Source: Nemertoderma westbladi (taxonomy: Eukaryota; Animalia; Xenacoelomorpha). From it: a stretch of 64,000 nucleotides of DNA. The position numbers were made by a program, and so were the translations under genes. Below are positions 2,508 to 62,899 of this stretch, in pieces. Location: contig JAUCBJ010008799.1 in assembly GCA_032718475.1 (NCBI GenBank), forward strand, positions 62,001 through 126,000. Direction: 5' to 3'. Within the stretch, counting starts at the first letter, position 1; each line of letters starts with the position of its first letter. The notes below the pieces were generated by a model. It was not told the DNA's origin, searched no databases, and worked only from the letters and a program-made list of their open reading frames with translations.

Positions 2508-2525
2508 CCGTTATTCCCGACACCA
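2508..2525 (-). promoter_or_regulatory. tRNA primer-binding site (TGGTGTCGGGAATAACGG)
   Basis: Starts with TGG (complement of tRNA CCA) immediately after the LTR terminal CA. TGGTGTC resembles tRNA-Leu-type PBSs (tRNA identity tentative). Confidence 0.65.
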
Positions 2526-21010: not shown

Positions 21011-21230
21011 TTGGCTGCCCAAATCCATCGTAGCTCGGCTGCCTGAATCCGTCATAGCTCGGATGCCTGAGTCCATAGTAGTTTGGCTTCCCGAGTCCAT
21101 CGTAGCTTGGCTGCCCGAATCCGTCATAGCTGTGGTGCCCAAATCCGTCATAGCTTGGATGCCTGAGTCCGTCGTAGCTCGGCTGCCTAAATCCGTCATA
21201 GCTCGGCTGCCCGAATCCACCATAACTCAG
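21011..21230. repeat. 24-bp tandem repeat (about 9 copies; TDSGSRAM-like on the minus strand)
   Basis: gaatccgtcatagctcggctgcct-like units, open in both orientations. Confidence 0.8.
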
Positions 21231-29059: not shown

Positions 29060-29392
29060 GAGCATTATCATATTGTCCTATTTAGTTGTCCTATTTATTA
29101 TATTATATATTTAAATTATCCATCACTCAGCCCACAACAATTCACTAATTATTATCAATCTACAAATTATTGGCGCCCATTGCAATCAGTACTGACTGTG
29201 AGCTTCTAAGCAAAAAATTATATATCTGTGTGTAAAAATAAGAGGTTTACCTAAATAATACAATAATATTCAAACCCATTCCATAAACATAAAATAACCC
29301 ATTACTAATCCAACTTCAATTAAAAGCTTATTGATTAAAGAAAGAATCATTATAACTAAATCAATATAAAACAAATCTAATGTGTCACATAT

Positions 29393-37949: not shown

Positions 37950-39293
37950 GGGATGTCGATTTTCTTGCCCCTTTTCTTGTGAGTTTGGATATCTTCTTCA
38001 CGATCACGACCAGTCAGCCAGTCACTCTCTTTAATAGGTGAATGAGGGCAGAATCGACTTCACTCCCTGGACTATTGGTAGCATCAGGTACTGGAACTTC
38101 GGAAGGGAGAATTGAGAGAAGCTTCTGACGATTGACTAGATATAGTCCGGTTTTAACCAGAGAACCAGAGATAACCAGAGACCAGATTCTGGTTAGGTCC
38201 TGAGCCACCATCATTTACAGCATCCATCAGTTTGGACAACAGAGATGGAAATACACTCTTTGGGAGCAAGTCTAGTTTCGGGTGTTTTGTTTTAAAGTCA
38301 TGTAGTATGTTTCTCCAACGTTTTTTTAATGGACCAAAAAAGGCCACATCTTGCGGTTGCAATTTATCTGTGGAATTTGCAGGAAGGCAAATAAATTGTA
38401 TATTGTGCAACTCACAAAGCCGAAGCACTTCCATCGACAAATGCGTAGAGAGATTATCACCAATGGTAATCTTCTTAGTTTCGTTACCATTTGCTTTTAG
38501 GACAGGTAATAGTATAGAAATGAACCACTCTTCAAAACCCTTAGTTTCAAACCATCCCGATGGCGAACACGAATATCTACTTCCTTGTGGGCCCCCAAGT
38601 GTTTATGATGTATAGACTGACCCAGCCTTATAAACTACGAATGGGGGTAGCAATTTTCCTGCGGCCGATTTGCCTTTGAGTGATCCCTAACCCTTTCAGG
38701 GTATTTGGTGATCATAAGAACTTTTTTTTTGCCAGGGTCATCAGACAAGTTGCTTTCGCATAGTTAAATAAACAGTCCGATGTAACTCCTTCAGCCTCTT
38801 TTTCGAACCGATCAAAAAATTCATTCACAACTGTAGCATCTACTTGGGCACGTTTACGTTTGATATTATTTCCTGCTATTCGAGTAGTTAAGAGTTCATG
38901 CCTTCCCAAAGACGAATAAACGAATTCATTACTTGGGAGATTATCCTTAAAAACCTTGCTTCTAACTCCTTTGGTGTCTAAAATAGTCTTAACCAAAATG
39001 CGAAGATCAAACGAATCAATTGGAAATCCCCAATCACACATCAGTTGAATGTGATTTACCAATACATTCTCTTGTTCAGTTGTTAAAACGGGAGGTTTTC
39101 CTGGGGGGTTTGGTTTAAGTTTTTTTAATCGACATTGCAAAGTTGCTCGTGAAATTTGAAATTGTTTCTCTGCTTCACGCTGACTCATGCCTTTCTTTAT
39201 AGCATCTAGTGCCTTATCCACATCCTCTGAGGTATAATTTAAGTAATTTCGAGCACCTAATCGCTTTTTGTGTGCTCTTGGCATGGTAGTCAA
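37950..39293 (-). pseudogene. pogo/Tigger-like DDE_1 transposase pseudogene
   Basis: HTH-psq plus CENP-B HTH (YTSEDVDKAL...MSQREAEKQFQISRATL; LTTEQENVLV..WGFP) and DDE_1 motif CLPANSTDKLQPQDVAFFGPLK; frameshifted. Confidence 0.85.
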
Positions 39294-39935
39294 ATATATA
39301 GTTATAAGTTAGTTAATAGTTATATATAAGTTAAATATATATTTCGTGTGTTTGTTATTTAATCACCAGTAGCAGTAAGCCTACCCCTGCCTACACAACA
39401 ATGTCATATGCCATGTGGCTAAAGTTAAAGTTAACTACTGTACTTCATGAACACAAAACTGGTTAGATGGCCAGACTCAGAATATAAAATAGATGACTTA
39501 TGACTGATTATCATTACATGTACAGGTACATGTACTTTGTTTACAAGTAGGCCTACTGGTATACAACTGTACAATCTGTAGAGGTACATATTGAATTTCC
39601 CACTCTTTTAGAAGCGATGCCTATTTAAAAATTGCCTAGTCTGCACTGGATGTAGTATTTTAAAGAAGCAACCTGTACAATTTTCATGATATTAAATTTG
39701 GTGGCCAGAGAATCCCCATGAAAAAGAAGTGGCTCAAGTTACCACATTTACCAATTATTACTTGTTGTCTAATATAAAGACAAATAAACCATTTTCAAAG
39801 TGCTAAGCATACAAAATTAAGTGTTTAAATCAATTCATTAGTGTCTATATTCATTAACAAACATTTGAAAGTACTTTTTGAAAGTTTTTTCAAACCCCCA
39901 CGGATATTTATGTAAAATGATGAAAAGTCAGGATA

Positions 39936-41000: not shown

Positions 41001-41153
41001 TGTTCCGAGTTCTGAAAGATACAATGGTTTAATAGATAACGTAGTTAATGTACCACAAAGTCCTATCTACCGCGGTGTTCGCTCTCACTACGAATGCTGG
41101 ACACTGAAATTAAACTAAAATGTCGGTTTCAGTTTGCCACTTAATTCAGTGAC

Positions 41154-41701
41154 TGTGACAGGATCCAGGAAGGATCCCGGTTTATCCGGTTGTTTAGTTC
41201 ACGCATCCCCGCCGTGTCTATGAAAGGTAAAAAGAGTTCGTGTCGTTCGTCGTATATAATGATCGGTTGTTCGGGTATATAGATATGAGTATAGATATAT
41301 AGATAATATTGTCGTATACAGAAGGCGGGATACGGTAATTAAAGTCCCGGTCCTTCCCTAGCTAAACTAACTAACCTAACTAGCACCAATATGATACTGA
41401 GATAACTGAACTGAAATTATTACTGCCAATTGGCTATATTGCACGGTTGGCCTTGTTACTCTACCTAATCGATGCCTTTCCCCCCTCTGATTGGTTGATA
41501 CCCTTGTTGGCGCCCTTTGGAGTGTTTCCGTTCACTCCACCTGTTCTCTCTGGGTTAGGGGTTTGGCCCCTGACCCTCATTGTGTTTCTCCTTCCCATTT
41601 TGTTGGGGTGACACGAGTTGGTGATTACCCAATCTCGTGGCCCCCAATATTGCTTATCGGCTTAACTTTATGGGGTGTTAGCGGGATTGAATAAGCTAAC
41701 A
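41154..41701 (-). repeat. 3' LTR (548 bp)
   Basis: Near-identical to 52224-52771; preceded on the minus strand by the PPT. Confidence 0.95.
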
Positions 41702-41723
41702 CTCCCCCCCATGCTATCTTCCC
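41702..41723 (-). promoter_or_regulatory. Polypurine tract (GGGAAGATAGCATGGGGGGGAG-like) abutting the 3' LTR
   Basis: G-rich run ending GAG directly before TGTTAG. Confidence 0.8.
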
Positions 41724-42417: not shown

Positions 42418-44964
42418 CTATCTGTTCCTCTGGGGATAGTTCCCCCTGGCGTCCTCTTCCCTGGGTCGTTTCTTGGTTACCACCGCTCCTCTGGGGTCCG
42501 CTTTCTGCTTTCGGACATTCGCCGCCACCTCCCTGCTGATTCCGGTTGTTGGCTCCTTGGGCGCTGGTGTTATTAGTGCCCGATATCGCTTCGCCGGTGG
42601 CCCCTCAGAGTGGCCCTGTTGTCTCCCTCTGGTGGCGTCCCATAGGATCATCTTCATTGCTCGCGGTACGTGCTCCGCCAAGAAATCCCTAAACTCCCCT
42701 CGGTTCTGTGGCGTCCACCTGTCCAAATATCTTTGTGTGTTCATCACTCCGGCATACGACGCCGCCGTTGCTACCTCTTGATAGGTAAACGGTAGCCTCC
42801 GCTTTATGATTTCCATGTGAGCCTCCTGATTGATAAGGAAGAAACCCCACTTGAACTCCTGGGCCTTCATGCGCTGGCGCGTCATGGCCCCGACGTCGGC
42901 CCACTCCTCGAATCTCCTGAACTTCTCTTCGTCGTCCATCCAGTCGCACTGGCGTCCGTAGTGTCCCCGAAAGTTGCACTTTGGACATCGGTTATGCAAC
43001 CGTGGACACGCCCCCATCCTGTGGCTCGGCTCTCGGCAGTAGAGACAAAAGGTTCCCTTTTGGAACCGGTACAAGCAGCTCCTTTCCTGGTGGGTCTGTC
43101 TCCCACAGTAGTCGCAGCCGAGTACCAATGTCTCCCGCCCCACGTCGTCTTTCGTCCCAAGCGATCTCCGCGGTCTGTGGAGTCGCTGGTAGGCGAACTT
43201 CTCCACGTTGGTGTCTCTGTCTACGTCGATCTCTCCGCCCCTCTCGGGCATCGTCTCCCCGAATACTATCCGTGGTGCCGTCCCCGGTTGCTCGCCCAAC
43301 CTGATAGTGCTCCCCGCGAAATCCATCGCCGGCTCCTCGTGCACCCAGGTCCGCTTGCCGGATCTGTTCCAGAAGGCCCTCGCCCCACTGGCCGTCACCA
43401 CCCTTCCGCCAACCCAGTCCGTGTCCGAGTGGCCTATCCTCTCGATGGGCGGCATCTCTCCGAACTCGTCGTCGTCGTCCTCCTCCTCTGGCAGTGGCTC
43501 CAACCCCGGTATCCCGATGGATCCACTATGTCCCTTCCCGCCTTGGCTCTCGCCCGTAGCTCTCCATCCCTCTAGCTCCCTTAACTTCCTTGGCGGTTGG
43601 TCGCCTTCGGCGCCCGCTGGTATGGGCATCGCTTGCAACCCCGACGTCGACTGTTTCGGTGATCCCACCGTCCATCCCAGTTCTCGCCCTAGAGACTCCC
43701 CCGAACTCCCTGACGAAGTCCAATGAAGCTCGTCTAAGCCTGCCTGTTCCTCGAAGCCGTAACTCTGTGTCCTGGCCTCCTCTTCCCTCTCCTCTGCTTC
43801 TATCCTCTCCCGTCTAGCGACTTCTTCCAGTCGCTTTGCTTCTCGTCTATCCGTTTCTAGCTGCTCCCATCTCTGATACGGCGTATCTGTCTCCCCGTCT
43901 ACCAGATGTCGGCTGTTGTAGTACACCGACTCGCCCTTCAGCCCCGGGTGGTCTACCAGACCGTCGAAGGCCATTTTAAAGGCTCTCCTGTAGCTTAGGG
44001 GTGATCCCGATAACAGAAATGCCGCTGGTTCCCTCTCGATAACCACGGTCATAAATAAGTTAAGCAAACTTATCATCATCCAATCTTCCTGCAGGATATA
44101 TCGCTTCTGATATACCTTTATCGCTCCTCTGCGGAATTGATATACCTCTTGCTTTCCCGGTCTCGCTCCCCACTTTAGCGAGTTCGCTAGTTCTGCTCCG
44201 TATTCTTCCCTGAACTTCCCCCAGTCCATCGGTTTGTGGCACACGAGCCCCAATAATTGGCCCATTGCCACCGCCCCGCATTGGCCTGTGTTTTCGACTA
44301 CCCCCAACCCATCCGGTGCCGTCATAGCCATAAAGACCTTCTGCATATCCAGGAGGTTGGTGGCGTCCGGACCGATGATTCTCTCCGCATCCTCGCGAAT
44401 CGCCGATCCTACTTTCGTCGTCGACTTCTCTCTTACCAAGACTTGTACCGCTTTCGGTAACCGGTTTAATTTCGGCCCGTCCTTCTTCCCATACGTTCCT
44501 AGATCGAATAAGAAGATGTCCCCATTTGGCGCGGCCAAATGTAGGAGTATGGTCCTGGCCGACCCCGCCGATCCTCGTCTCGAACCCGCCTCGTCTTCCA
44601 CGGTTCCCTCGTCGTCTAGGATCATATATCCTCCCCTGTTGACGGACTCTATGAATCTCTTCCAGTCCTTCCTCGGTGATTCCCTCGGGTACTTCGGAAT
44701 CCCGAACTTCGCCTCGTCCCCTTTCACCACGTAGTGGAAGTGTTGGAAGATCGCGTTGTCCAGCGACGGCGTCCCGTAGGTCCCGACCAGCCGCTGTTCG
44801 TGCATCTCCCGGAAGTGATCCTGCAGCGCTCGTGCCGCGTGACCCCTTTCCAACCTCTCGTAGTATCCTCTCGTCTTCTCTTCCGGATGCCTCTCGGTGA
44901 AATCCACCAGTATCTCCTTTCCTCCTGACTCCGCCTTTCTCTTTCTGATCAATTTGCTCGCCAT
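42418..44964 (-). CDS. Accessory ORF: DEDDy-like (WRN/EXD/Mut-7/RNase D fold) 3'-5' exonuclease, acidic disordered linker and three CCHC zinc knuckles (848 aa from ATG)
   Basis: ExoI YMILDDEG, then LLHLAAPNGDIFLFDL, LPKAVQVLV, ExoII KVGSAIREDAERI, LLDM, ExoIII QKRYILQED. Knuckles CDYCGRQTHQERSC, CLYCREPSHRMGAC, CPKCNFRGHYGRQC. No stops or frameshifts. Confidence 0.8.
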   Translation of the reverse strand: MASKLIRKRKAESGGKEILVDFTERHPEEKTRGYYERLERGHAARALQDHFREMHEQRLVGTYGTPSLDNAIFQHFHYVVKGDEAKFGIPKYPRESPRKDWKRFIESVNRGGYMILDDEGTVEDEAGSRRGSAGSARTILLHLAAPNGDIFLFDLGTYGKKDGPKLNRLPKAVQVLVREKSTTKVGSAIREDAERIIGPDATNLLDMQKVFMAMTAPDGLGVVENTGQCGAVAMGQLLGLVCHKPMDWGKFREEYGAELANSLKWGARPGKQEVYQFRRGAIKVYQKRYILQEDWMMISLLNLFMTVVIEREPAAFLLSGSPLSYRRAFKMAFDGLVDHPGLKGESVYYNSRHLVDGETDTPYQRWEQLETDRREAKRLEEVARRERIEAEEREEEARTQSYGFEEQAGLDELHWTSSGSSGESLGRELGWTVGSPKQSTSGLQAMPIPAGAEGDQPPRKLRELEGWRATGESQGGKGHSGSIGIPGLEPLPEEEDDDDEFGEMPPIERIGHSDTDWVGGRVVTASGARAFWNRSGKRTWVHEEPAMDFAGSTIRLGEQPGTAPRIVFGETMPERGGEIDVDRDTNVEKFAYQRLHRPRRSLGTKDDVGRETLVLGCDYCGRQTHQERSCLYRFQKGTFCLYCREPSHRMGACPRLHNRCPKCNFRGHYGRQCDWMDDEEKFRRFEEWADVGAMTRQRMKAQEFKWGFFLINQEAHMEIIKRRLPFTYQEVATAASYAGVMNTQRYLDRWTPQNRGEFRDFLAEHVPRAMKMILWDATRGRQQGHSEGPPAKRYRALITPAPKEPTTGISREVAANVRKQKADPRGAVVTKKRPREEDARGNYPQRNR

Positions 44965-45444
44965 TCCGAACACTCACTCGCTCACCTGCAAGGTGGTGCC
45001 TTACCAAGGCGCAATACAGATGAGTGATGTATCTAGGATGTTCTGTACGGTCCGATAATGGCCTATTCCTTACTTAACTGCGCCTTTTAGCCTAAATTAT
45101 TACTAATTAATTCTGAAGCTAGTAAATACACCCTAATTTCGATTTCTGTCCGTTACTTTTATTATGTTCCAGAATAACTTTCCTAGTGTTGCCATAATTT
45201 GTAACTTTCAGCCCTATTCTATTTATTTTTAGTTATTTTAATTCTACTGTCCTACTACTTACTATTGCCTATGGATTATTCTATTCTCTAATCCACATTC
45301 TGGCCTACTCTGTGGGCCTGTGCAGTACAGCAGTATGCGTCGTGTGGCCACACGATTTACCCAGCTGTACTCATATGCCCCCCTCTCGCTACTAACTGCT
45401 AACTAATATCTATATCTTATATACCCTTTTACCTCTTACTCTCT

Positions 45445-46120
45445 CTCTAACTAACGGTACTACGTACCCTCTAACTCTTTCTCTAACTAACGGTACTACG
45501 TACCCTCTAACTCTCTAACTAACTAACGGTACTACGTACCCTCTAACTCTTCTCTAACTAACGGTACTACGTACCCTCTAACTCTCTAACTAACTAACGG
45601 TACTACGTACCCTCTAACTCTTCTCTAACTAACGGTACTACGTACCCTCTAACTCTCTAACTAACTAACGGTACTACGTACCCTCTAACTCTCTCTAACT
45701 AACTAACGGTACTACGTACCCTCTAACTCTCTAACTAACTAACGGTACTACGTACCCTCTAACTCTTCTCTAACTAGCTAATGGTACTACGTACCCTCTA
45801 ACTCTCTAACTAACTAACGGTACTACGTACCCTCTAACTCTTCTCTAACTAACGGTACTACGTACCCTCTAACTCTCTAACTAACTAACGGTACTACGTA
45901 CCCTCTAACTCTTCTCTAACTAGCTACGGTACTACGTACCCTCTAACTCTCTAACTAACTAACGGTACTACGTACCCTCTAACTCTCTACTAACTAACGG
46001 TACTACGTACCCTCTAACTCTCTAACTAACTAGCGCTACTACGTACCCTCTTAACTAACTAACTAACGCTAGGTACTACCGTACCTCTTAACTAACTAAC
46101 TCTAGGTACTACGTACCTTC
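45445..46120. repeat. Tandem array of about 19 copies of a 35-39 bp unit containing the GGTAC-TAC-GTACC mini-hairpin
   Basis: ctaactaacGGTACTACGTACCctctaactct repeated; counted by eye. Confidence 0.9.
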
Positions 46121-46318
46121 TTACTGACTAACTTCTGCCTACTAACTGCGTACCTACTATGTACTATTATTTTATTTTTATTTTTATTTTTTATGTGTGG
46201 GAAGGGCGTCTCGCCCTCAATCCCACCCCCCTCAGTCCAAACTTGGACGACTAAACTCATGACTAACTCCACTAAGGTGCCCCTTCTAACAGACAGGTAA
46301 CACCTCTGCCCGCACCTT

Positions 46319-48952
46319 TTACGGATCTAACTCTTCCATCCCAGTCCAACCTATTGGACAACTCAGCGACCCAAGGGGTGATTCCTCCAGCAGGCAACTC
46401 TCCCACTGCCACCCTATAGGTCCTCTAATTCTTCGCTCCGCTCTCCTTGTCAATTCTGGTGGTCTTTTCTCCTGTCTTTGGAAATGCTGTCTGTTATTTA
46501 TGTTTCTGATCTCGTGGTCGTCCCTTGGCGGCAAAGTGCCACCCTTCAACGTGTCACCCGGCGGTATAATGCCGCCCCTGTTCTTCTCCTTAATCTTAGA
46601 TGCCACCTCTGCTGGCCTCCCCCTTAATATGTGTGCTGGCATTAAAGGCCTCGACGACCCCCGTTCGTCCTTCGGTATACACGATCTCTGCCCATGTAAT
46701 GCCCCTTCGCACTCTGTCAGTCCCGCGTGCGTCTGCAGCACGCCTCCTACTTTCCCGGCTCCTTTGTCCATCACACGCCCACCCACGGGCTTCTCAGCCC
46801 CTGGTCTGGTCGTCTCAAGTCTTCTCCCTTTCCATTTAGTCCTCCTGCTCGGCCTCCCCCTTGTCGGCATGCCTCCCAACCGGACCGGCATCTCTTCCGG
46901 ACACTCCTCCGGCCTGTCCCCCGGACATTTTGCCGTCCGCTCCTCTCCATCTCCATACCGATGCTTGCTGGGACTCTTGTTCCAACCCATCGTCTCTAGA
47001 TCTTCTGCATCCATGCCATTCTCCTCCGCCCACTCTCTTGGTGTTGCTTCCACTTCTAGCTGTCTACCACTATTGCCCATCTCTGGCCTCTCCTCTATCT
47101 CGTCGACAGTTCCTGGCACCATGCATCCTGAACTCTCAGACACATGGAATGGTATATTACTCTTAATTGGGCCTGTCAGTGTCCACCCGAATGGTGTTAA
47201 TATCGCCACCGGGTCACACTGCTTGTCTTCGCCGAAGACCGTTTGCATTCTTTCGTGGGCCGTTGGGCAGTCCATTCCTACTATGATGGATACCTTCCTA
47301 ACGTCCACGTCTGGGATTGAGAAGTCAATGTCGTCCAGGAATTTATATTGCTCGACCTCGATGTTGGTTGGCCGCCTGGCATTGATATTAATTGACTCTA
47401 TCACTTGGATGGGGTCGATGGTTGCCCCATAGTCGCATCCCGGTGCCACTGCTGCAATTGCGCACCGTCCTGTTCTCATCTCCAGGATCTCATCTTTGCT
47501 AGAGATGGTTGTTACCGCCATTCTGCTTGGCCTCGTTCTCAATCCTATCTCTTCGGCCACCCATTCCTCGACTAATGTGAAGGCAGCTCCACTATCAACC
47601 AGCATTAGTGTTGTTACTGATCGATTGCCTTCCCCAATCACTCGCACGGGTACTACTCCAAGTAACACCGTTCCTCTCTTCTTCGCCCCTACTGTGCTCG
47701 TTGCCATCGTTTGGCCTCTCCTTTGACCAAACTTGACCGGCTTCTCCTTGCATTCCCTTGCTCTATGTCCACTCATCACACATCGCGAGCAGATTTTATT
47801 GCTCAACGCATAATCTATCTGATCTTGCCTAGGTAGCGCCTGCCAGTACCTGCAGTTCATGGTTTGATGAAGCGCATTTGCGTGTAGCTGGCATTTGCTC
47901 TTTGGGTCGTAGCCCTCCTTATACAGCGCATTGCGTATCGCAGCTGCGTTTGTACCAAAGTCCCTACTATTCTTATTGTTTGGATTCGGCCTACTGGACG
48001 TACTGGGGTTATATTTATTCGTGTTGTTATTGTTCCCCTGTCCGTTCCATGGTGTTGTCTTATCTTCGGCTAGCTGTGGACTTGCAGTCCCCTGCGTCGC
48101 TGCATATGGCAATGATTGCCTGAGCCTCGGTAATGCGTTTGATGTATTGTGCTCTGGTTTCGGTCTATGGTAATCCGTCTTCGGTCCCTTTCCCAGGCTA
48201 TCTTCGCTATAGACTGGGTCAGTTATTAGTTCAGCCTCGTAGTTTAAGAAGTTTGACATTTCTTCTAAACCCGGTTCCGCACCCTTCTTGTCTCGAGTGG
48301 AGAAAGCGATCTTCCTCCACTTGTTGCGCAGCCAGTTCGGTAGTGCCTGCGCTATCGTGGTGATGTTATTGGACGCGTTGAGCTCGTATGGCGCGTCTAG
48401 CGTCTTCAGCACGATTAGCGCCTTTTCGACTTTGTTAGCGAACGTCTTAATGCTAACGGGATTATCCTGTAGGCCACCCGATGTTATGCCTCTCAGTGTC
48501 TGTCTGATGATCTTGGCCGGGTGCCCGTATTCCCTGTCCAGTGCCCGCCATGCTGTCGTGAAGCCGCCCTCTATTCCTTGATATTGCCTCACGATATCGT
48601 ATGCTGGGCCTCCCGTGTATACTTGCAGATACTTTAGGCACTCCGCCTGCGTCAAGTTTTTTGTTAGTATTTCGTTACTATACATGCGCCGAAACTGTAG
48701 ATATTCTTCCGGCCTACTCCCATCGAATTTGAATGGTTCCACGGGTGGTAACTCGATCCTCGTTTTCAACGCATCGATCAACGTGGCCATCCCCATCGCC
48801 TGCGCTTCCAATGGATTCGATGGGTGCTGTATAGTTTCTCCTGTCTGGTGCGGTTCGTCCGTCCTATTTCTTGATTTTCTTTGACTTGGGTATGTCATCG
48901 GGGGTAGCGGCCCCCTCCATATCTCTGTGTCACACGACCTATTTTCATCCAA
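46319..48952 (-). CDS. Bel/Pao gag core, zinc knuckles, aspartic protease and eroded pol remnant
   Basis: ELPPVEPFKFDG...YLQF (DUF1759-like), LPNWLRNKW, CSRCVMSGHRAREC, MLVDSGAAFTLV, PVAILTPFGWTLTGP. The tail has only traces of the integrase C-terminus (PLMPAHILRG, CLLEE). Confidence 0.85.
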   Translation of the reverse strand: MDENRSCDTEIWRGPLPPMTYPSQRKSRNRTDEPHQTGETIQHPSNPLEAQAMGMATLIDALKTRIELPPVEPFKFDGSRPEEYLQFRRMYSNEILTKNLTQAECLKYLQVYTGGPAYDIVRQYQGIEGGFTTAWRALDREYGHPAKIIRQTLRGITSGGLQDNPVSIKTFANKVEKALIVLKTLDAPYELNASNNITTIAQALPNWLRNKWRKIAFSTRDKKGAEPGLEEMSNFLNYEAELITDPVYSEDSLGKGPKTDYHRPKPEHNTSNALPRLRQSLPYAATQGTASPQLAEDKTTPWNGQGNNNNTNKYNPSTSSRPNPNNKNSRDFGTNAAAIRNALYKEGYDPKSKCQLHANALHQTMNCRYWQALPRQDQIDYALSNKICSRCVMSGHRARECKEKPVKFGQRRGQTMATSTVGAKKRGTVLLGVVPVRVIGEGNRSVTTLMLVDSGAAFTLVEEWVAEEIGLRTRPSRMAVTTISSKDEILEMRTGRCAIAAVAPGCDYGATIDPIQVIESININARRPTNIEVEQYKFLDDIDFSIPDVDVRKVSIIVGMDCPTAHERMQTVFGEDKQCDPVAILTPFGWTLTGPIKSNIPFHVSESSGCMVPGTVDEIEERPEMGNSGRQLEVEATPREWAEENGMDAEDLETMGWNKSPSKHRYGDGEERTAKCPGDRPEECPEEMPVRLGGMPTRGRPSRRTKWKGRRLETTRPGAEKPVGGRVMDKGAGKVGGVLQTHAGLTECEGALHGQRSCIPKDERGSSRPLMPAHILRGRPAEVASKIKEKNRGGIIPPGDTLKGGTLPPRDDHEIRNINNRQHFQRQEKRPPELTRRAERRIRGPIGWQWESCLLEESPLGSLSCPIGWTGMEELDP

Positions 48953-51900
48953 GGGTCTCGTTGTTCTTGCTCCTATCGGGGTATATTGTTGATATTGTGA
49001 TGGGGGAATGTCACCCTGTCCCCCCCCCCACCGGTATGTTTGGTACTGGGGTTGATGTTAATATATTGGGGCCCATACACCTATCCGCAATAATTCCCCC
49101 CTCCCCTGGGTATATGTTATGTCCCTGCATGCTGTAGTCATACTGCTGTACTGGTACCGGTATAGGCCTATCAGCTTCTGGCCTACTCGCCGGTATGTAT
49201 TCCGCGACTTCCGGGTTTAATCCCGTTGTCCGCGCTATCCTATCGCCTACATTGCCTCTCTCAGTATGGCCTATGGTATGTGCAGTAAGGCCTACAGTAT
49301 GTCCTACAGTCTGCATGTGTCGCTCGGGATCGAAGTTTATTCTTCTCGAATAGTCCTCCCCGTGGCTACCGTATTCTCGATCGGTAGGTACATTCCGTCG
49401 GAAAGTTTCTCTTCGACCCCCCTCTCTACTGTTCTCGTCTTCGTACCGGTACATCGCGTACCCCTCCATCGGCGCGTAATGCACCTCACCAGGTCGCATC
49501 TCTCCGGGGTGACGGCAATCTCCCGGAGTCCGACCCTACTGACTCTCCGTTCTCATCTCGACTACCGACGGCTCGCTATCCGTCCTCGCTCTTCTATCGT
49601 TCGCGGCGATACTTTTACTACTGTCTTCTCTTCTTCTCCTTTCAGTGTAGTATTCCCGCTCGTGAGATCTCTCGTCGACCTCCTGGTTAAACCCCACTGT
49701 TCTTCTTCCCTCTTCTGATCGGGCTCGACGCTTCGTCCGCCCTCTCACGACGTCAACCTGTCTCTCTCTGCTCGGTCGCACGCCGCTGGGGATACTCCCA
49801 ATCCCCCTATTACTCTCCGTTGCCGGGTGTTGCGGTTTACCTATTTCGGCCCGCGCATTATCCGCTGACGGCTGTGGAGCACTCTCTGCCCCCCCCTTTC
49901 GCCGCTAACTCGCTGTTGTGGGGCTCTTTTAGCCCCCCCCCCACTCGCCACATCTAACTTCGCTATCTCTCACCCCGCTACTATATCCCTCTCTCATCGA
50001 CACATCAACCCTACCGCGGTCGGGTCTATTCACCCCCGCCTCTCCCTCTGCTATTGCGTGGCCTACCAGGCCCTCTACCTCCTGCCTACCAACTATGTGG
50101 CCTACCAGGCCCTCGCTGGGTCTACCCGACCCAGCCACTCCCTGCCTACCAACTACGTGGCCTACCAGGCCCTCTCTGGGTTGGCTCAATCCCGCCACTT
50201 CCGGCCTACCAATTGTACGGCCTACCAGGCCCCCGTCTGCCTGGCCATACACGCCCGACGTGTTTACGTTAATAGCACCCATATTGGAAACGGAATTAAT
50301 TTGTTCGTTTGAAACAAAATCATTTGAATTATTTTGTAAATTCGGGCTTGGATCATTATTTAAATTATTTGAATTATTTTGCACGTTCAAATTGAAATTA
50401 TTATTTGTACTTAAATTTAAATTACTGCTACTAGGTAAAGTATTATTTGCTGCAATAAAAGGATTAGGGTTGTCCAATACGGTACTATTAATATTAATGA
50501 CGTCTACTATAGCATTATTATTACCCCACCCCCCCCCCCCCCCCCCGCCCATACGGTCACACCAGTCTTGGGTCTGTCGTGCGGTCCCTGTAAGTGGGGT
50601 ATTAATAAATGTATCCACGGCCCCTGGCTCCTCGAAAATACTCGAGCTAGCCCCACTCTCAGACGCCCCTACTCGCGCCAATTCCCGTTCGCGCGTATGT
50701 ATAGCTTTGTATCCTGTAAGCTCACCTTGACGTCTTTCTAGTTCCTTTTGCTCACACTCCTTCCTTGCCATTCTCTCCTTACACTCCCGTGCGTCCCGTT
50801 CGGCCAATTCCAACTCTCTTCTAGCCCCCTCCCTTCATCTCGCCTCACGCTCTCTGCGTTCGTTTTCCTCTCTCGCCTCGCGTTCTTTGCACTCGTTTTC
50901 CTCTCTCGCCTCGCGTTCTCTGCACTCGTTTTCCTCTTTCGCCTCACGTTCCCTATGTTCCGCCTCACGCTCCTTGCGCTCAATTTTCTCTCTCGCTACA
51001 CATTCCCTACGTTCCGCCTCACGCTCTTTGCGCTCATTTTTCTCTCTCGCCTCGCGCCCTTCTTGTTCCTTCCTCCCTACTTCCTCACACTCCCTAAGGC
51101 TTCTCGCGGCCCTTTCGGCCCTCTCTCCGGTTTCCTTAATCAACGCCATTTCCCTCTCTAGCAGCACTCTCCCCTCCTCTAACCGTCTACCTACTTCCCT
51201 TTGACCTTGCTCTATTAAATCGAGACGGTACGTGGCATTTATCTCTCTCACCCGTCTTTCTTTCACGGAGGATGTAGCAGACTTATCGGTTGTAACGGAT
51301 TCCCTCCGCCTCCCCGTCCTACTAACTTTCCCCCGCCTCCCGGAACTTCCTCCGACCGACGAGGCCGAATCCTCGGGGTTAACCTCGGATTCGCCCTCCT
51401 CGGGTCTCTCCCAACCCACTAATTTTACTCCCTGGGCATCGACTAAGTATGGCCCTACGTACACTATGCTAGGTTCCATACCCCTACACCGCCATAGGTC
51501 ATACAGTTCCTCGGCAACCCCTCTCGCTCTCTCCTTGGCCAGTTCTCTTTGCCCGAAGCGCATTAGATAATAAAAGTGTCTATTCGACTCACGTAGTCCT
51601 TTCTTTAGTTTTACCTTGTCTATCTTCGCCCCTCCTCTGGCCTCCTCTAATAGTCTCCGGGTCGCGTTGTAGGCCCGTCGAAGTCGATCAGAAACCCCGA
51701 CGTCCTCGTCGCCGACCTCCCTTCCGTCTCTCCGGGTCCGGCGTCGTACCGTCGGCCCCACCGTCGCCGTTTCGGTGGGCCGCTCGTCGCCCTCGGCCTG
51801 TGGCTGGCCGGCGACGTCGGTACTGACATCTCCTCCATCTCTTCGGGTCCGGCGTCGTACCGTCGGCCCCACCGTCGCCGTTTCGGTGGGCCGCTCGTCG

Positions 51901-52160
51901 CCCTCGGCCTGTGGCTGGCCGGCGACATCAGTACGTCGACCCACGTCTCGTGTCGACTCGTCTCCTTCTCCCTCCATCTCGCTCTCTCCTTCTCTCGGCT
52001 CGACCTCGGGTTCCAGGCGGCCCCCCTCATCCTGAGCTGCCGGATGACCCGTTACCGATGGGTCCGGCATTGTGGGCCTGTACCGCCTGGTTGCGGCCTC
52101 GCGGATCGTTAACTCTTCGTCCGGGGTCCGCGTCGGCGTTGTCTCTCCCGACTGACTCAT
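48953..52160 (-). pseudogene. N-terminal gag extension (low complexity, E/R coiled coil) broken by in-frame stops and G-homopolymer frameshifts
   Basis: ORFs 50835..52160 and 49929..50813 share a frame (single TGA), as do 49536..49781 and 49011..49499 (single TAG). Other breaks coincide with poly-G runs, so some may be sequencing errors. Confidence 0.7.
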
Positions 52161-52223
52161 CTCGCTTGGTGATTGGTGGCTGGTAGTTTAGCTAGCTAGG
52201 GCGGCAGCTCTGAGTTTAATTAC

Positions 52224-52771
52224 TGTGACGGGATCCAGGAAGGATCCCGGTTTATCCGGTTGTTTAGTTCACGCGTCCCCGCCGTGTGTATGAAAGGTAA
52301 AAAGAGTTCGTGTCGTTCGTCGTATATAATGATCGGTTGTTCGGGTATATAGATATGAGTATAGATATATAGATAATATTGTCGTATACAGAAGGCGGGA
52401 TACGGTAATTAAAGTCCCGGTCCTTCCCTAGCTAAACTAACTAACCTAACTAGCACCAATATGATACTGAGATAACTGAACTGAAATGATTACTGCCAAT
52501 TGGCTATATTGCACGGTTGGCCTTGTTACTCTACCTAATCGATGCCTTTCCCCCCTCTGATTGGTTGATACCCTTGTTGGCGCCCTTTGGAGTGTTTCCG
52601 TTCACTCCACCTGTTCTCTCTGGGTTAGGGGTTTGGCCCCTGACCCTCATTGTGTTTCTCCTTCCCATTTTGTTGGGGTGACACGAGTTGGTGATTACCC
52701 AATCTCGTGGCCCCCAATATTGCTTATCGGCTTAACTTTATGGGGTGTTAGCGGGATTGAATAAGCTAACA
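52224..52771 (-). repeat. 5' LTR (548 bp) with clustered TCAGT initiator-like motifs near 52466-52484
   Basis: Near-identical to 41154-41701; gag ATG lies 63 nt downstream. Confidence 0.95.
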
Positions 52772-53138
52772 GTGACAATTACCATATGATACACTTACTG
52801 TATAGTTGTGTGTGGATTTCAGTTGATTCTATTCAATATAAGTTATACAATACTGAACAACAGTATACGGTATCATTGTTGTATTAATATTGTTCTATCA
52901 GTATAAATTAACATACGATAATCATAATGAAAATTATTTAATAATTCCAGTTTTTAATTTCATTTTCAATTAGATAACAAATTTAGTAATATATTATTTC
53001 AGTTTTGGGTACACTGTTAGACAAAAGTTAGTAGGCCTACTACTGTACAACTGTATGAATAGTTGATGTTAGCGGACAGTAGGGTGTGTGAGGGAGACTT
53101 GAGTTAAGGGGAGACTTGATATTTTTGAATAACTCAAA

Positions 53139-55670: not shown

Positions 55671-56804
55671 TTGAATAACTCAAAAACTATTGTAAATTAT
55701 TTCACAATAACACACCATAATGTTCAAAATACTTGTAGGCTACACCCACGCAACAGTGTTGTATTACCTTTTGGTTATTTTTTGTTTTATTGCCAATAAA
55801 CGTTTTATGGGTTCAAAAGTAAATTGTTAACCTTTACAACGAATGAAAATGCGCACCCTTTTCAAATTATATCATTTAATATAAAAAAAAGGGGTGCGGG
55901 TCGATTCGCCCCTTGACCTATTCGCACCAAGTCTATTCGCCCCAGTAATATAATATACAGTATGTAATATAATAATGAATAGGGTCTATACTATAACTAA
56001 CTATCACTTTTCAAATATTTTTATCTTATCTAGGTATCATTTTTTATCATTCTAATTCAAAAAATCGAATTATAAAGGGAAAAGGTACACATGTTGGTCT
56101 AGTGCGATAATTTACCAATTACAATTACTATACGTGTTCTGTACAGCTGTGTAGTATATTGCATACATAGTATGACATTAGCCTAGACATGCTAGAAAAA
56201 TATTTAAAACAATAAACATGTCAGCATGTAGCCAGCCTGCTCATAAGTCATAATTCATTCTACATCTTGCTGTTCTGTAATTATGCCCAACAATTTATTG
56301 TTGCACCATCAATACACAACAATTGAATCATCAAATGAGACAGGGGGGGCAGTGCCGGATTAACCTTAAGGCATATAAGGCACGTGCCTTTGGGCCAGCC
56401 GAAAATACGGGCCATTTTTTATCAACGAGTCATTCCTATGAAAAAAATATTTTCTAAAATTTGTAGAAAGCAGAGCAAGAAAGTGCATCTTTCGACTACA
56501 TTCGATCCCTAAATTTGTGATAGAAAGTGAAAATTCTAGCTCAGTCGAGGAGTCAGGTGCTGTGTTATTAGTTCGAGACCTGATGGCAGGGAAATAATAA
56601 TACATTGGTAGTAAAACTTTAAAGAGCTAATTATGAACAATGGAGAATTTAATTGAATTTTTTTCAATTTAATTTTAATTATTTGTCGTCAATAACATAA
56701 TATTGCTGATATTTATGACTCTCTGTATAAAAGAGCTTCCGGTAATTCTGTCGGGAATCGAAAACGTAAACTCGCCGAACGGTTCTAAAAAGGTAGTAAC
56801 AAAA

Positions 56805-58229
56805 ATGACACACTCAGCAAAAAAAAATAAGCAGAAAAATAAAAGTGAAAAGGAAACTAAAGGCGGCAGTGGCCCTTTGGGTGCCTTCTTCCTCCCTTCC
56901 CATCCGACAACGAATGCGAGTGACACGGAACAAGAAGTCTCCGAGCCACAACTCAAAAACGATAGCGTCGAGGGAATCTCCACCCCGTTAGCGAATGTCG
57001 AGCACAATAAGGTCTTTGGAGAGGATGCGATTTCCCCCCCCGACAGTGCCGATGGGCTGAGCGAGCCTATAAACCCCCCCTATACAAACCCCGCTAGTCT
57101 CGACAAACAACTATCGAGCGAGGAATCTCTTGAATCTCTAATTAGGAATTTGGGTACCCAAATGAACACCCAGACGAACACGCTTCGAGGTGACATGAAA
57201 CTTCAGGCTTCCGAAATTAAGGAACAGATAGTGACCCTAAAAAAGGAATTTCGAAAAGAAATCAATGAGGTTATAGAGTCTGTCGACTTCAACAGCAATT
57301 CAATTCAGGAGACAAACGAAGCACTCGCTTCCTCAATTCAACACAATCAAGCCGAGAATCGGGAAACTAGAAGACAAATTCTATCCAACGAGGTTAGGTT
57401 CTGTAAATGGAACTTAATAATATTCGGAGTCGAAGGAAACCAAAGAGAAAGTCACGAAAAATCAAAAGCGTCACTCGCGCGTTTAGCTGAAAGACTCGAA
57501 CTTCCTCTTCCCATTGTCGCCAACTGTCACAGAATTTCCGGAAAGATAAACGCCCCACTATTCGTTCGTTTCATCCAGTTGGATGAGGTAATGGCGTGGT
57601 CACAAGCAATTGGTAATAAGAAAATCTCTCTGATTAATAACACACAAGTTACAGCAACCCGTGATCTCCCCAAGTGCCTCCTTCCTCTACGAAAGGAACT
57701 AGTACAAATGCGAAAAAATTTGGATCCGGATCAACGCAAAGAAACAAAAATTCACATCAACGAGAACTTTTACCCTTTTGTTTTCCTAAAAAAATCGGAT
57801 GGCTCAATGCTCTCTCCACAGATGGATCCCAAGCTTCCAACAATCCCTGCAGCCATAAAGATACCGCATCAAATAAGTAATGAACGCATGGAATGGCTCA
57901 ACATCCCAAAATCCAACGAGGTAGATCAATCGGTTCGACAAAAGGTTCCACAGATCCCGAGCTCAGTACCACATGAAGGCGACGACATTCACGGAGAAAG
58001 TGAAGGTTTCGCAGGGAGTCGAGAAAGACAACGGGGTCTCGGCCGTTCCCGTGATGGCTCCCAAAGCCAATATCAGAGACAGCACGCACCGCGCGGACGA
58101 GGGTTACAATCCTCTGATTGGGGATACAATCCTCACGATGGTAATAGATACTATCGAGGTGGTTATAGTAGCGACCATAACGGATGCATGAATGGAAGGG
58201 ATGGTGGCTACTACAGTAGTTTATATTAA
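56805..58229 (+). CDS. L1/Tx1 ORF1p (coiled coil, RRM-like domain, G/R/Y-rich tail)
   Basis: Coiled coil then NLIIFGVEG, CHRI, PLFVRF, RDLP motifs; likely start MTHSAKK. Confidence 0.8.
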   Translation: MTHSAKKNKQKNKSEKETKGGSGPLGAFFLPSHPTTNASDTEQEVSEPQLKNDSVEGISTPLANVEHNKVFGEDAISPPDSADGLSEPINPPYTNPASLDKQLSSEESLESLIRNLGTQMNTQTNTLRGDMKLQASEIKEQIVTLKKEFRKEINEVIESVDFNSNSIQETNEALASSIQHNQAENRETRRQILSNEVRFCKWNLIIFGVEGNQRESHEKSKASLARLAERLELPLPIVANCHRISGKINAPLFVRFIQLDEVMAWSQAIGNKKISLINNTQVTATRDLPKCLLPLRKELVQMRKNLDPDQRKETKIHINENFYPFVFLKKSDGSMLSPQMDPKLPTIPAAIKIPHQISNERMEWLNIPKSNEVDQSVRQKVPQIPSSVPHEGDDIHGESEGFAGSRERQRGLGRSRDGSQSQYQRQHAPRGRGLQSSDWGYNPHDGNRYYRGGYSSDHNGCMNGRDGGYYSSLY

Positions 58230-59071
58230 ATTCGAGTAGGTCAACCCCTTGATACTCATTTAAGAATATTCCCATTTAGATTGGTCTAAATTACCGAATT
58301 TACAAATACTTTTGAAATAGGTTAATGGACTAATCTCATTGTTAGATTTAGCAGCCGAAGGTAGAATACATAAATCTGATGCAGAATCCAAGTACGAACT
58401 GGCTTTTTATGCACTGGCAAATGGCAGGCCTCAGTTATTTTTCAGTTATTTTCTTTCCGTTTTTGTATTTAGTCAGAGTTGCTGTTTTTGTGATTTATTC
58501 CATTTTTGTTTTTTTTTGTTTCACATTGCGAAAGAATACTGTGCGACTGTTTGTGTGGAAATAATCCTGCCAAAGGCATTATTAATTTTGTCGGCAGCGA
58601 ACTGGTTGAACTCCATTATGATTATAGTGGACAAATACAGCTCGATTTCTGCATTTCCTCTTATTTTTTTATTGAACTTCCTTATTGTATTAGTATTAAA
58701 TTTAAATTTTTTTTTTTGCTATGCCATAAAAATACTCCTCCATCTCTCCACAATAATTGTTATATCGCTATACTCAAAAATCAATATGAATTTTCAGTAC
58801 AGCAGCAGCGCCATAAATGTTTTTGATGTGAAGTTTGCATTCGACCCAAGTGTCTACGTCCCTTTATTTGTACATGTACACTATTTTTTTATCCTTTTTT
58901 TCATGCAGGGTTTTAATATTAAACTATCAGCAATAGATTTCGAAACAGCAGAAAATGATGGCAATATTTTCCTACACCAGCAATTTAAGTATCGAAATGT
59001 TCAACGAATTACTCAAAGAATTATCCAATTTTTTTTTTCCTTTAAAAGATATGAACTAATACAAACTCATT

Positions 59072-62000
59072 ATGGCGAATACTCCTATTAATATTGTATC
59101 TCTAAATTGTAGAGGGTTACAAAAAAATATCAAAAGAAAGGTTGTCTTTGACAAACTGACTGCCAACAATTTTGATATCTGCCTGCTCCAAGAAACTCAC
59201 AGCTCCGACTCAGACTGCGAAGCCTGGTCGAAGCAGTGGAAGGGCCATACCGTTTTTACCAAAAAAAGTTCACAAAGTGTTGGGGTAGCGATCCTTTTTA
59301 ACGAAAATTTACAATATAAAATAATTAAAAAAATCGTTGACCCTTCAGGAAGATTCATTATTCTAGATGTCGATATAAATAGTACAATTCTGACCCTTGT
59401 AAATATTTATAACTTTAATATTGATTCTAGTGTTCTGATTAAACAAATAAAAAACGAAATGTTAAACTGTTTCGAAAGTGTAAACGTTATATGGGCGGGA
59501 GATTTCAACTGCGTCTTAGACATCACCAAGGACAAATTCGGTGGAGCTCCAAAGACAAATGAAAAAGTACGTTGTGAGGTCTTAGAAACTATGGAAAATA
59601 TTAATTTAATCGATATATATCGGTCACTGCACCCAAATGGTATTTCCTTTTCACATAGACAAAAAGTATTCCAAGGATGGGTACGTACACGAAAAGATTT
59701 TTTTCTCGTTTCAAGTTCGATTGCATCTGTCACTAGTAAATGCGGATCAGTATCCGGATTTTACAGTGACCATTCGGCGGTTTTTTTACAATTCGAAATA
59801 CCAAATAACTGGACAAACAGGAAAAAGGGACCCGGGTTCTGGAAACACAATAATTCTTTACTAACTGATGAAGATTACATATGCCTTGTCAAAACAACCA
59901 TCTCGGATACAGTGACCGAATATAAAGATAATATAAACCCACATTTAAGGTGGGAAATGATAAAGTTAAATGTTCGAACAAAGGCTATAAGCTATGGCAT
60001 TAACAAAAATAAGGAAAAGCACAAAAAACGAAATAGGTTAGAAATTGAGATCGAAAATTTTCACAGAAGAGAAAAATTTCTTTCAAACAGCGAAATGCAA
60101 TCATATCAAAATGCTCAAAATAACCTTATTAAATTAGAAGAAAACGAGGCCCAAGCCTCAATGTTTCGGGCAAAATTACAAAATTATAATGCTGGAGAAA
60201 AACCAACGAAATTTTTTCTCAATTTAGAAAAAAGTAAATCAAAAAATAATACTATTCATAGACTTAAAACGAAAAGGGGTGAAAGTGTAACATCTGACAA
60301 GGAAATTCTCAATGAAGCAGTACAATTTTATAGTGATTTATACCAGTCTAAAAAATTTAATCATTGTCCGATCCTCAGAGATGAACAATCGTCAGCATTT
60401 TTCACAAAATGTGCCAACTTACCAAAACTTGATGAAATGTCAAAAAATTTTCTAGACAAAAATATATCAGAGCTCGAATGTTTGACTGCCTTAAAGGAAA
60501 TGTCAAATGGGAAAAGTCCTGGTGGTGACGGGTTCCCTACAGAATTTTATAAATTTTTTTGGACAGACATAAAAAAATATGTATATGAAAGTTTCCTTTT
60601 CTCGTTTGAAGAACAATCTTTATCAGTATCACAGCGTCAAGGTATCATGTCCCTTTTCCCAAAAAAGGACAAAATACCATCTTTAATAGAAAATCGCAGA
60701 CCGATCACTCTACTAAATACCGACTATAAAATCTTGAGCAAAGCCCTAGCCTCTCGAATGAAAACCGTCTTGGTAGCGATAATAAATTCAGACCAAACGG
60801 GCTCTGTAAAAGGCCGTTACATTGGTGAAAATATAAGACGCATAATCGACACAATGGATATTCTTGATAATAGTGAACAATCCGGCCTAGTTGTGATGGC
60901 CGATTTTCAAAAAGCATTTGATTCTGTAGAATGGGATTTCTTGGAACAGGCATTGAAACATTTCAATTTTCCAGACTCTTTTCTCACTTGGTTTGGCATT
61001 TTATATAACAACAATTTTAAGTTAGTGATTCAAAATAACGGTTATTTATCAAAATCTTTTGTTGCTTCAAGAGGTGTTCGTCAAGGATGTCCGTTATCGG
61101 CATATTTGTTTGTATTAGCTGTTGAAATACTTGCTGGGGTAGTTAGGAATACACATGAAATTAAAGGACTGCAAATGGGGAACAGCAATAATATAATTTC
61201 ACAGTATGTGGATGATACCAATTTTTTCCTACAAGCATCTGCCGAATCGCTTATGGCTCTAATGGAGATCCTAGGGGTTTTCGGAAATATTTCTGGCTTA
61301 AAGCTAAACAAATCCAAAACAGAGGTAACTTGGATTGGCTCCATGAAAAACAGAGCCAGCAAGATCTGTCCACAGCTAAGGCTCAAGTGGTTAATTCCCG
61401 GAGAGCCTTTCAAAATCCTCGGGATTCTACTTTCTACAAATATTTCCTCCATTGAATGCTTAAATTTTCCTGACGCCTTGGAAAAGGCAAAAAAAATAGT
61501 AGAAATTTGGTCACGCCACAAACTCTCTTTATTGGGTCGGATATGCATCGCAAAAACTTTGGTGCTCTCAAAATTTACATATTTATTTGCATGTCTTGAA
61601 AACCCATCAGTGAACATGCAAAAAAATATCTCAGACCTATTAGACAAATTCATCTGGGCTGGAAAACCGCCAAAACTTAAAAAAGCAGTAATGATTAACT
61701 TATATGAAGTTGGTGGTGCACAAATCCCCGACTTAAGTACCTTCATAGAAAGTCAAAAAGTTAAATGGATTCAAAAACTCATAGAAAATAGTCATTCGGT
61801 GTGGAAAACACTCGCCTGCACGCAACTCGGGGATAGTGTTGCCAAAAATTTAAAATGGTTTGTAAATTTACTTCCAGATGATATAAAAAATATCAAGGTG
61901 TGTAAAGGTAATTTCTGGTGCAACGTCTTAACTGTCTGGTGCCGAATAAATTATGCAGTCAGAAACGGCATTGACAATGATGATTTTGTTAACTATCAAA

Positions 62001-62899
62001 CTATATGGTTAAACTCCAATATTAAAATTGATAGTAAACCACTTTTTCATCAACAATGGATTAATAAAGGTATTTTTTTTATCCATAACATCAGAAACCT
62101 CCAACAAAACAGATTTCTTTCCTTTATTGAATTACAAGAAAAATTCAATGTTTCCAAAAAAGACCATTTTTTCTACATGAGTGTAGTGGACGCCATTAAT
62201 ACTCAGTTAAGAACTGCGCTCAAAAAACAGGTACTTGGAGCTTCTGCGCCACTCTCTATGAACATAATTAACAAAGGTCGACGATCAACAAATACGGCAT
62301 ACAAATTATTTATAGATCAAATTGGTGAAACAAACACAGTAGCAAGTCAAAAATGGTGCTTAGAGTTACACACTGATGTAGATAAAATTTTGTGGAACAA
62401 ATTTTTTCAAATGGCCAAAACAAATTCACGTGAAGTGAAAATGTGGTCCTTTCAATTCAAGTTACTGCACCGTAGGTTACCCACAAATACTTTGCTATTT
62501 AAAATAGGCATTTCATCATCAAACCTTTGTTCTTTTTGTAAAACACTCGAGGAAACTTATTTACATCTTTTCTGGGAGTGTGAAACTGTGAAAAAATTAA
62601 TTGATGAATTTAAATTGTGGTGGTTAAAAAACACAAAACAGTCATTAATTCTTACAAAGCTTTCAATGTTGTTTGGGTACCACACAAAAGTGCCGCCAAT
62701 CATTAATTGCCTCCTACAGTTACTAAGATACTATATTTATTGCGAAAAATTCCAAAATACTCCGGCTCTACAAATGTCTGTTTTTCTACATCATGTTCGA
62801 AAAAATTTCCTTTATGAAAACTACATCGCAGTTCAGGAATCAAAAATTTACATTTTCGAGCAAAAATGGAAGCTAATCAATGATTACTTTTTAAGATAA
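59072..62899 (+). CDS. L1/Tx1 ORF2p: APE endonuclease, reverse transcriptase and C-terminal zinc finger (1275 aa)
   Basis: SLNCRGL, LQETH, GDFN, SDH; KSPGGDG, DFQKAFDSV, RQGCPLS, QYVDD; CSFC...HLFWEC. Confidence 0.95.
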   Translation: MANTPINIVSLNCRGLQKNIKRKVVFDKLTANNFDICLLQETHSSDSDCEAWSKQWKGHTVFTKKSSQSVGVAILFNENLQYKIIKKIVDPSGRFIILDVDINSTILTLVNIYNFNIDSSVLIKQIKNEMLNCFESVNVIWAGDFNCVLDITKDKFGGAPKTNEKVRCEVLETMENINLIDIYRSLHPNGISFSHRQKVFQGWVRTRKDFFLVSSSIASVTSKCGSVSGFYSDHSAVFLQFEIPNNWTNRKKGPGFWKHNNSLLTDEDYICLVKTTISDTVTEYKDNINPHLRWEMIKLNVRTKAISYGINKNKEKHKKRNRLEIEIENFHRREKFLSNSEMQSYQNAQNNLIKLEENEAQASMFRAKLQNYNAGEKPTKFFLNLEKSKSKNNTIHRLKTKRGESVTSDKEILNEAVQFYSDLYQSKKFNHCPILRDEQSSAFFTKCANLPKLDEMSKNFLDKNISELECLTALKEMSNGKSPGGDGFPTEFYKFFWTDIKKYVYESFLFSFEEQSLSVSQRQGIMSLFPKKDKIPSLIENRRPITLLNTDYKILSKALASRMKTVLVAIINSDQTGSVKGRYIGENIRRIIDTMDILDNSEQSGLVVMADFQKAFDSVEWDFLEQALKHFNFPDSFLTWFGILYNNNFKLVIQNNGYLSKSFVASRGVRQGCPLSAYLFVLAVEILAGVVRNTHEIKGLQMGNSNNIISQYVDDTNFFLQASAESLMALMEILGVFGNISGLKLNKSKTEVTWIGSMKNRASKICPQLRLKWLIPGEPFKILGILLSTNISSIECLNFPDALEKAKKIVEIWSRHKLSLLGRICIAKTLVLSKFTYLFACLENPSVNMQKNISDLLDKFIWAGKPPKLKKAVMINLYEVGGAQIPDLSTFIESQKVKWIQKLIENSHSVWKTLACTQLGDSVAKNLKWFVNLLPDDIKNIKVCKGNFWCNVLTVWCRINYAVRNGIDNDDFVNYQTIWLNSNIKIDSKPLFHQQWINKGIFFIHNIRNLQQNRFLSFIELQEKFNVSKKDHFFYMSVVDAINTQLRTALKKQVLGASAPLSMNIINKGRRSTNTAYKLFIDQIGETNTVASQKWCLELHTDVDKILWNKFFQMAKTNSREVKMWSFQFKLLHRRLPTNTLLFKIGISSSNLCSFCKTLEETYLHLFWECETVKKLIDEFKLWWLKNTKQSLILTKLSMLFGYHTKVPPIINCLLQLLRYYIYCEKFQNTPALQMSVFLHHVRKNFLYENYIAVQESKIYIFEQKWKLINDYFLR

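Follow-up and report, generated by a model that had tools for sequence, protein, structure and literature searches.

A BEL/Pao element of Nemertoderma westbladi that may prime reverse transcription with its own LTR RNA

Background

How does an LTR retrotransposon whose leader offers no tRNA-binding site start the synthesis of its first DNA strand? This question is raised by a BEL/Pao LTR element of 11.6 kbp, located on the minus strand at 52771-41154 of the window (the whole 64-kb stretch of Nemertoderma westbladi DNA analysed here), the leader in question being part of its 5' end. The reference description of BEL/Pao has these elements replicate by tRNA priming, in a process that is poorly understood (PMC8742986), and this ICTV profile, which gives an 18-nt tRNA-Arg or tRNA-Gly site, bears out the remark of the first-pass annotation that such elements are considered tRNA-primed. 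As far as the available sections of the sources go, the first 11 nt of the Tf1 RNA are cut off by RNase H and used as primer (PMC7175516), self-priming has been proposed for Tj1 of S. japonicus (PMC4600332), and Tcn1 and the TAR lineage of copia are predicted to use it as well (PMC6317226).

Results

Structure and insertion of the element

The following features were recognized in the element and at its borders.

52772-52776 (right copy) and 41149-41153 (left copy), no strand assigned: target-site duplication of 5 nt
52224-52771, minus strand: 5' LTR, 548 nt, with TG...CA ends
52161-52223, minus strand: leader, 63 nt, without TGG
49929-52160, minus strand: gag N-terminal frame, with ATG at 52160; a stop near 50835 breaks the frame; no Pfam match
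46319-49057, minus strand: Gag (DUF1759, E-value = 6e-11) and aspartyl protease frame
45405-46133, no strand assigned: tandem array of ~36-nt units, between the Gag-protease frame and the cargo
42418-44964, minus strand: cargo ORF, 851 codons, likely with a DEDDy (WRN-like) 3'-5' exonuclease domain and three CCHC knuckles
41702-41710, minus strand: polypurine tract, preceding the 3' LTR
41154-41701, minus strand: 3' LTR, 548 nt, with four differences from the 5' LTR, none of them within the pairing blocks described below

The TG...CA LTRs, the short target duplication and the polypurine tract are those of a BEL/Pao element, as are the Gag and protease (DUF1759 match, and tblastn matches to RT-bearing relatives down to an E-value of 2e-27). 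The two LTRs are 99.3% identical and their ends are intact, which implies recent reverse transcription, and the flanking repeat has an empty-site copy at 9825-9880, which confirms the insertion point. The uninterrupted second copy of the repeat that hosts the insertion occupies 9490-9980 of the window. When the element was probed with the pol proteins of three relatives, no RT, RNase H or integrase was found inside it. The element is thus a recently inserted, non-autonomous BEL/Pao derivative, and we infer that its RT must have been borrowed. Just upstream of the tandem array, the stretch 46457-46158 has a 77-78% copy at 34214-34398 (plus strand) among LINE fragments.

Other features of the window

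A second BEL/Pao element (303-2900, minus strand) has gag and protease and runs off the window. The TGG site ascribed to it earlier was recovered as a putative site at 2130, just upstream of gag; this primer site has a self-complement of only 8/12, and by eye it matches a listed Lys-CTT tRNA end at 11/12 positions. A decayed BEL/Pao RT remnant lies at 28182-28517 (plus strand). Two intron-less paralogs of an ABCC-type ABC transporter, 87% alike, are found on the minus strand at 4500-8182, where the gene is split into several frames, and at 29349-33027, where it forms one frame of 1206 amino acids. Long ORFs exist at 14027-15511 (minus), 16242-18833 (plus), 38712-39308 (minus) and 56679-59091 (plus), and a Pfam scan that covered the long ORFs apart from an HTH transposase-like fragment gave no match. 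By eye, we take the long ORFs to comprise a transposase-like frame, an RT-plus-endonuclease-like frame pair, the HTH transposase fragment and frames upstream of a LINE at 59060-62899. Tandem arrays of 24-nt and 18-nt units and nested inverted repeats occupy 20970-21257, 8673-8902 and 25968-26649.

A predicted primer site complementary to the LTR

Two short segments are central to the question.

52212-52223, minus strand: predicted primer-binding site, starting with GT immediately after the LTR end
52405-52416, minus strand: LTR segment predicted to act as self-primer, which complements the site at 11/12 positions and ends in AC, 181 nt before the LTR end; the 3' LTR holds a second copy at 41335-41346

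As previously noted, no TGG exists in the 63-nt leader; the sole TGG at most 50 nt from the LTR end, at 52237, lies within the LTR. This triplet was rejected as a tRNA site: it is two mismatches away from one listed tRNA end (by eye) and, being inside the LTR, cannot set the observed LTR end. In the available part of a published table (PMC13524379, supplement file 2, part 34), CCA closes every one of the 189 metazoan tRNA ends given, so no CCA-end site is possible in a leader without TGG. The element is therefore a BEL/Pao derivative that lacks the tRNA-Arg or tRNA-Gly site of its family. No tRNA genes were found in the 64-kb window, and Rfam gave 0 matches over 51900-52900.

The first 12 nt of the leader are complementary to LTR positions 52416-52405 at 11/12 positions, and the pairing ends at the LTR edge. 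Two further colinear blocks, of 12/12 (52428-52439 with 52184-52195) and of 7/7 (52454-52460 with 52172-52178), follow, so that all three blocks reported by the first-pass annotation were reproduced at the same coordinates. Its wording of the leader as an "inverted copy" of an LTR segment was overstated, the match being imperfect.

The strength of this complementarity was compared with several controls. A complement of at least 11/12 to the primer site occurred in three of 1000 shuffled LTRs; the 12-mer of the element has one mismatch, and its longest perfect run, 9 nt, was reached by 4/500 shuffles. The whole-leader local alignment score was matched by 27/2000 shuffles and the leader duplex energy by 4/300, but in raw duplex energy the leader was undercut by at least five of 166 internal 63-mers of the element, which are GC-richer. 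In a control with real sequences, none of 72 unrelated phage loci had a complement of at least 11/12 in the 548 nt upstream (these loci share the same 15-nt junction, and 72 of 75 had sufficient flank). The primer-site block is an AT-rich 12-mer, and the second block contains low-complexity TAG/TTAG repeats. Position-exact complementarity beyond both shuffles and real-sequence controls counts for self-priming.

Predicted folding and promoter motifs

Folding of the LTR-leader region was predicted with a z of -3.95, and the following features were recognized.

52422-52460, minus strand: LTR arm of the distal clamp, which contains both perfect blocks (12/12 and 7/7) and has leader positions 52204-52172 as its predicted partner (z -3.8, 0/200 shuffles)
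52466-52484, minus strand: three TCAGT initiator-like motifs, at 52484, 52479 and 52470, as reported earlier upstream of the pairing region
52263-52272, minus strand: stretch that, in the fold predicted for uncut RNA, competes for pairing with the primer segment
52205-52225, minus strand: competing small hairpin over the LTR/leader junction
52229-52249, minus strand: predicted U5 hairpin adjoining the LTR end (z -4.7)

The earlier proposal that the leader pairs with the LTR is upheld by the prediction for the distal blocks, in which many pairs have p > 0.9, but not for the primer block, which has p 0.002 in uncut RNA; forcing the primer duplex there is predicted to cost ~5 kcal/mol. When the RNA is cut after 52405, the predicted probability of the primer duplex becomes 0.45, 0.70 and 0.90 at 37, 25 and 15 C, respectively, and an isolated LTR fragment of 80 nt is predicted to pair fully with the leader (p 1.0). 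A further predicted helix joins 52477-52466 to 52155-52165 and takes in the start codon of gag. In the relatives introduced below, the predicted primer duplex had p of at least 0.7 in eight of 12, against p 0.002 in the window element.

Two candidate general features were rejected. The U5 hairpin went beyond z -2.2 in none of 14 relatives, and the distal clamp was seen in only one of 16, so that the long 63-nt clamp is family-specific; a long clamp between leader and LTR is present in the relative L121 (z -5.2).

An upstream start, at the TCAGT cluster, is favoured by CCAAT boxes at 52564 and 52503. Downstream of the primer, TATA-like (TA)n repeats at 52371-52328 (minus strand) and a TCATT at 52332 form a candidate rival promoter. 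No canonical poly(A) hexamer was found downstream of the primer in the window element, whereas 14 of 16 relatives have such hexamers 13-96 nt downstream of it.

The signature in distant BEL/Pao relatives

By means of a BEL/Pao RT motif, at least 119 metagenome loci were retrieved; the window Gag-protease matches these loci down to an E-value of 2e-27 (tblastn). Of these 119 loci, the 39 in which a gag start could be called and DNA upstream of it was present were tested, the score being the longest perfect complement between the site 0-5 nt after ACA/ATA and the locus's own LTR, either unspliced or across consensus GT-AG junctions. A perfect match of at least 11 nt (11-14 nt) was found in 14 of the 39 loci, two of them from the same family, compared with 1/39 for reversed and 0/39 for complemented nulls. 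In 13 of the 14 the match exists only once a predicted GT-AG intron is removed, and in one it is unspliced; when the splice donor was slid by 1-3 nt, 1/78 remained. By the criteria that found the introns of the relatives, the window element has no LTR intron, and three relatives (L082, L089 and L152) are intron-less like it. The other 25 of the 39 lack a match of at least 11 nt, some of them because of short contigs, mis-called gag starts or ragged ends. A looser first pass gave 20/50 against 2/50 in the null; as it includes false positives (the best matches of L096, L105 and L122), 14/39 is the count used here.

Similar results were obtained when LTR ends were fixed blind by repeat divergence, in nine of the 23 loci with a repeat pair. 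Five of the nine matched over at least 10 nt, a length reached in 0-2 of 100 shuffles; these five are all those whose ends read ACA/ATA, and the four misses have ragged ends.

In a swap test, the sites of 20 relatives, picked by their match (so that their own-LTR scores are selected), and of the window element were compared with the LTRs of all. All 21 12-mers differ, by a median of seven positions, and cross-family matches of at least 11/12 occurred in only 15 of 420 pairings, for the most part where the two sites are nearly identical. With its own LTR the window site reaches a score of 11, and with each of the 20 other LTRs at most 10. The primer site begins with GT in 20 of the 21, and the primer ends 57-360 nt before the LTR end. 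In six relatives (L104, L099, L107, L109, L137 and L082), 3-5 spacer nt lie between the LTR end and the primer site.

Among the 17 matching loci with readable RT, RT identity is 45-72%, one identical pair apart. The Gag-protease of the window element forms a long branch and reaches no more than 24% identity with these loci, so that common descent of the signature can only be conjectured. The tree was a quick one in which both window proteins form long branches, and placement in it was not used. Protein searches with the cargo and the Gag-protease revealed no close kin, nor did direct scans of viral or metagenome contigs for Gag-protease loci; RT-motif scans of viral contigs yielded 0 loci.

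A likely cargo exonuclease

By language-model features, cargo residues 95-315 (approximately) resemble the PF01612 3'-5' exonucleases (score 0.94, 182 shared features, 30/30 named matches). Candidate acidic motifs were recognized by eye at residues 118, 192 and 292, the third with atypical spacing, and the three CCHC knuckles lie at 43116-42946. The exonuclease part had no Pfam, PDB or phmmer match, and a single-sequence fold model was uninformative (pLDDT 32). The cargo ORF is open whereas the gag frame is broken. None of the 119 relatives matched the cargo ORF, and in all eight measurable signature-bearing relatives only 94-233 nt (less than 300 nt) separate pol from the 3' LTR, leaving no room for a cargo.

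The signature thus does not require the exonuclease, and the cargo is likely to be an accessory gene, judging from these comparisons. According to the available sections of PMC5408684, DEDDy ORFs are reported as accessory genes both in LTR elements of rotifers and in Penelope-like elements, and ORF3 of the bdelloid elements Juno and Vesta is, like the cargo, an extra 3' ORF resembling DEDDy 3'-5' exonucleases. Those sections report the Juno/Vesta exonuclease without a priming role (PMC5408684). By description, the cargo of the window element differs in that its putative exonuclease domain is joined to three CCHC knuckles and sits in a BEL/Pao element. An exonuclease may also occur in nematode BEL/Pao elements, a point that our literature check did not confirm.

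Discussion

The primer site matches the element's own LTR and not a tRNA, as in distant relatives with other letters, and this makes self-priming likely. We assign a probability of roughly two in three to the reading that minus-strand DNA synthesis of the element is primed by a piece of its own RNA, derived from the LTR and ending at 52405. Transcription would start near 52484, and the first ~80 nt of the RNA would clamp onto the leader and hold the partners together. A cut just 3' of 52405, made most probably by the RNase H of a helper RT as in Tf1, would free a 3'-OH, from which the helper RT would copy 181 nt of the LTR and then jump to the 3' LTR, from which the part upstream would be restored. 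Most relatives would have to splice out an intron inside the LTR to assemble the same primer, while in the window element it would be ready-made. Of the earlier idea that tRNA-independent priming by LTR RNA is coupled to the cargo, the first half has gained support from the family-specific matches in distant relatives and the second has not.

A variant of self-priming, which shares the probability given above, takes the 3'-OH not from a cut in the 5' copy but from 3'-5' trimming by a host nuclease of either a short LTR transcript or the 3' end of the genomic RNA. It is consistent with the full pairing predicted for a free LTR fragment of 80 nt, with the presence of the primer segment in the 3' LTR and with the poly(A) hexamers shortly after the primer in 14/16 relatives, and spliced RNA could supply the primer while unspliced RNA keeps the intron. 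However, if the 3' copy were trimmed, the acceptor for strand transfer would lose a part, and we hold this variant to be somewhat unlikely.

Alternatively, the pairing might be structural only (packaging, dimerisation, a translation switch at the gag start codon or 5'-3' cyclisation), with priming left to some host RNA such as a tRNA fragment. The best-predicted helices are indeed the distal ones, which cover the start codon, and the primer block is not predicted in uncut RNA. However, 21 different sites, all of them starting within 0-5 nt of the LTR end, each find their match in their own LTR, and such family-specific sequences would be hard to serve by conserved host RNAs; moreover, the edge duplex is common among the relatives and the distal clamp rare (1/16). 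A purely structural role is therefore unlikely in our estimation.

We consider it quite improbable that the match arose by chance, or by a local inversion in a decayed element that had lost its original primer site: the 12-mer is AT-rich, block 2 is of low complexity, the per-test p is only about 0.003-0.014 and the element is defective, but the 99.3% identity and the intact ends of the LTRs speak for recent reverse transcription, and the same geometry recurs in independent families. Least probable is the coupled system of the first-pass annotation, in which the element's own cargo exonuclease trims the primer, since the PF01612-like residues, acidic motifs, zinc knuckles and open ORF beside a broken gag are set against an atypically spaced third motif, no alignment-based match, an uninformative fold model, signature-bearing relatives with neither the cargo nor room for it, and DEDDy ORFs reported elsewhere as accessory genes.

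If BEL/Pao elements self-prime, the reference description is wrong for many families, and annotation based on tRNA sites misses such elements. Silencing of the primer site by tRNA fragments would not reach them, and splicing of the LTR intron would be a control point for reverse transcription. In the openly available literature, our search found no paper on self-priming in BEL/Pao. In their available sections, three BEL/Pao surveys (PMC3118150, PMC554778 and PMC6238403) do not mention PBS or tRNA, a fourth (PMC8220671) has generic mentions of them only, and PMC3286476, PMC5443660, PMC3601003 and PMC13524379 contain nothing on BEL/Pao self-priming.

Comparison with known systems

With the Belpaoviridae of the ICTV, the element shares the LTRs, the 5-nt duplication, the purine tract, the DUF1759 Gag and the protease. 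However, the ICTV profile also lists the 18-nt tRNA-Arg/tRNA-Gly site, tRNA priming and pol (PMC8742986), and the element has neither the tRNA site nor pol. In this respect it resembles Tf1/Tf2 of S. pombe, Tj1 and the Tf1/sushi and Tcn1 groups of Ty3/gypsy, which, in the sections of the sources available, have no tRNA site and carry after the 5' LTR a site of ~11 nt complementary to their own LTR (PMC7175516, PMC4600332, PMC6317226). The primer of Tf1, as far as these sections describe it, is the very start of the RNA, whereas that of the element would be nt 69-80 counted from the first initiator-like motif, with a long clamp. Unlike Tf1, the element is a BEL/Pao without its own RT and RNase H, and most of its relatives would need splicing to build the primer. 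So, although the element would work like Tf1 in principle, it is not a Tf1/sushi member, its Gag being of the BEL/Pao type and not that of a Ty3/gypsy chromovirus.

In the TAR lineage of plant Ty1/copia (Houba, Osr-1), which belongs to another superfamily, self-priming was predicted from an LTR complementarity of at least 10 nt at a site 0-5 nt after the LTR, and the available sections do not mention a splice-built primer (PMC6317226). With a perfect run of 9 nt and 11/12 overall, the element comes near to the rule as given there. The odds appear evenly balanced that a large branch of animal BEL/Pao elements has left tRNA priming for an internal self-primer. In most families the spliceosome would assemble this primer from two exons of the LTR, whereas intron-less ones such as the window element would have it ready-made and held by a duplex of 60 nt; self-priming would then have arisen independently a third time, and for the first time with a spliceosome-built primer.
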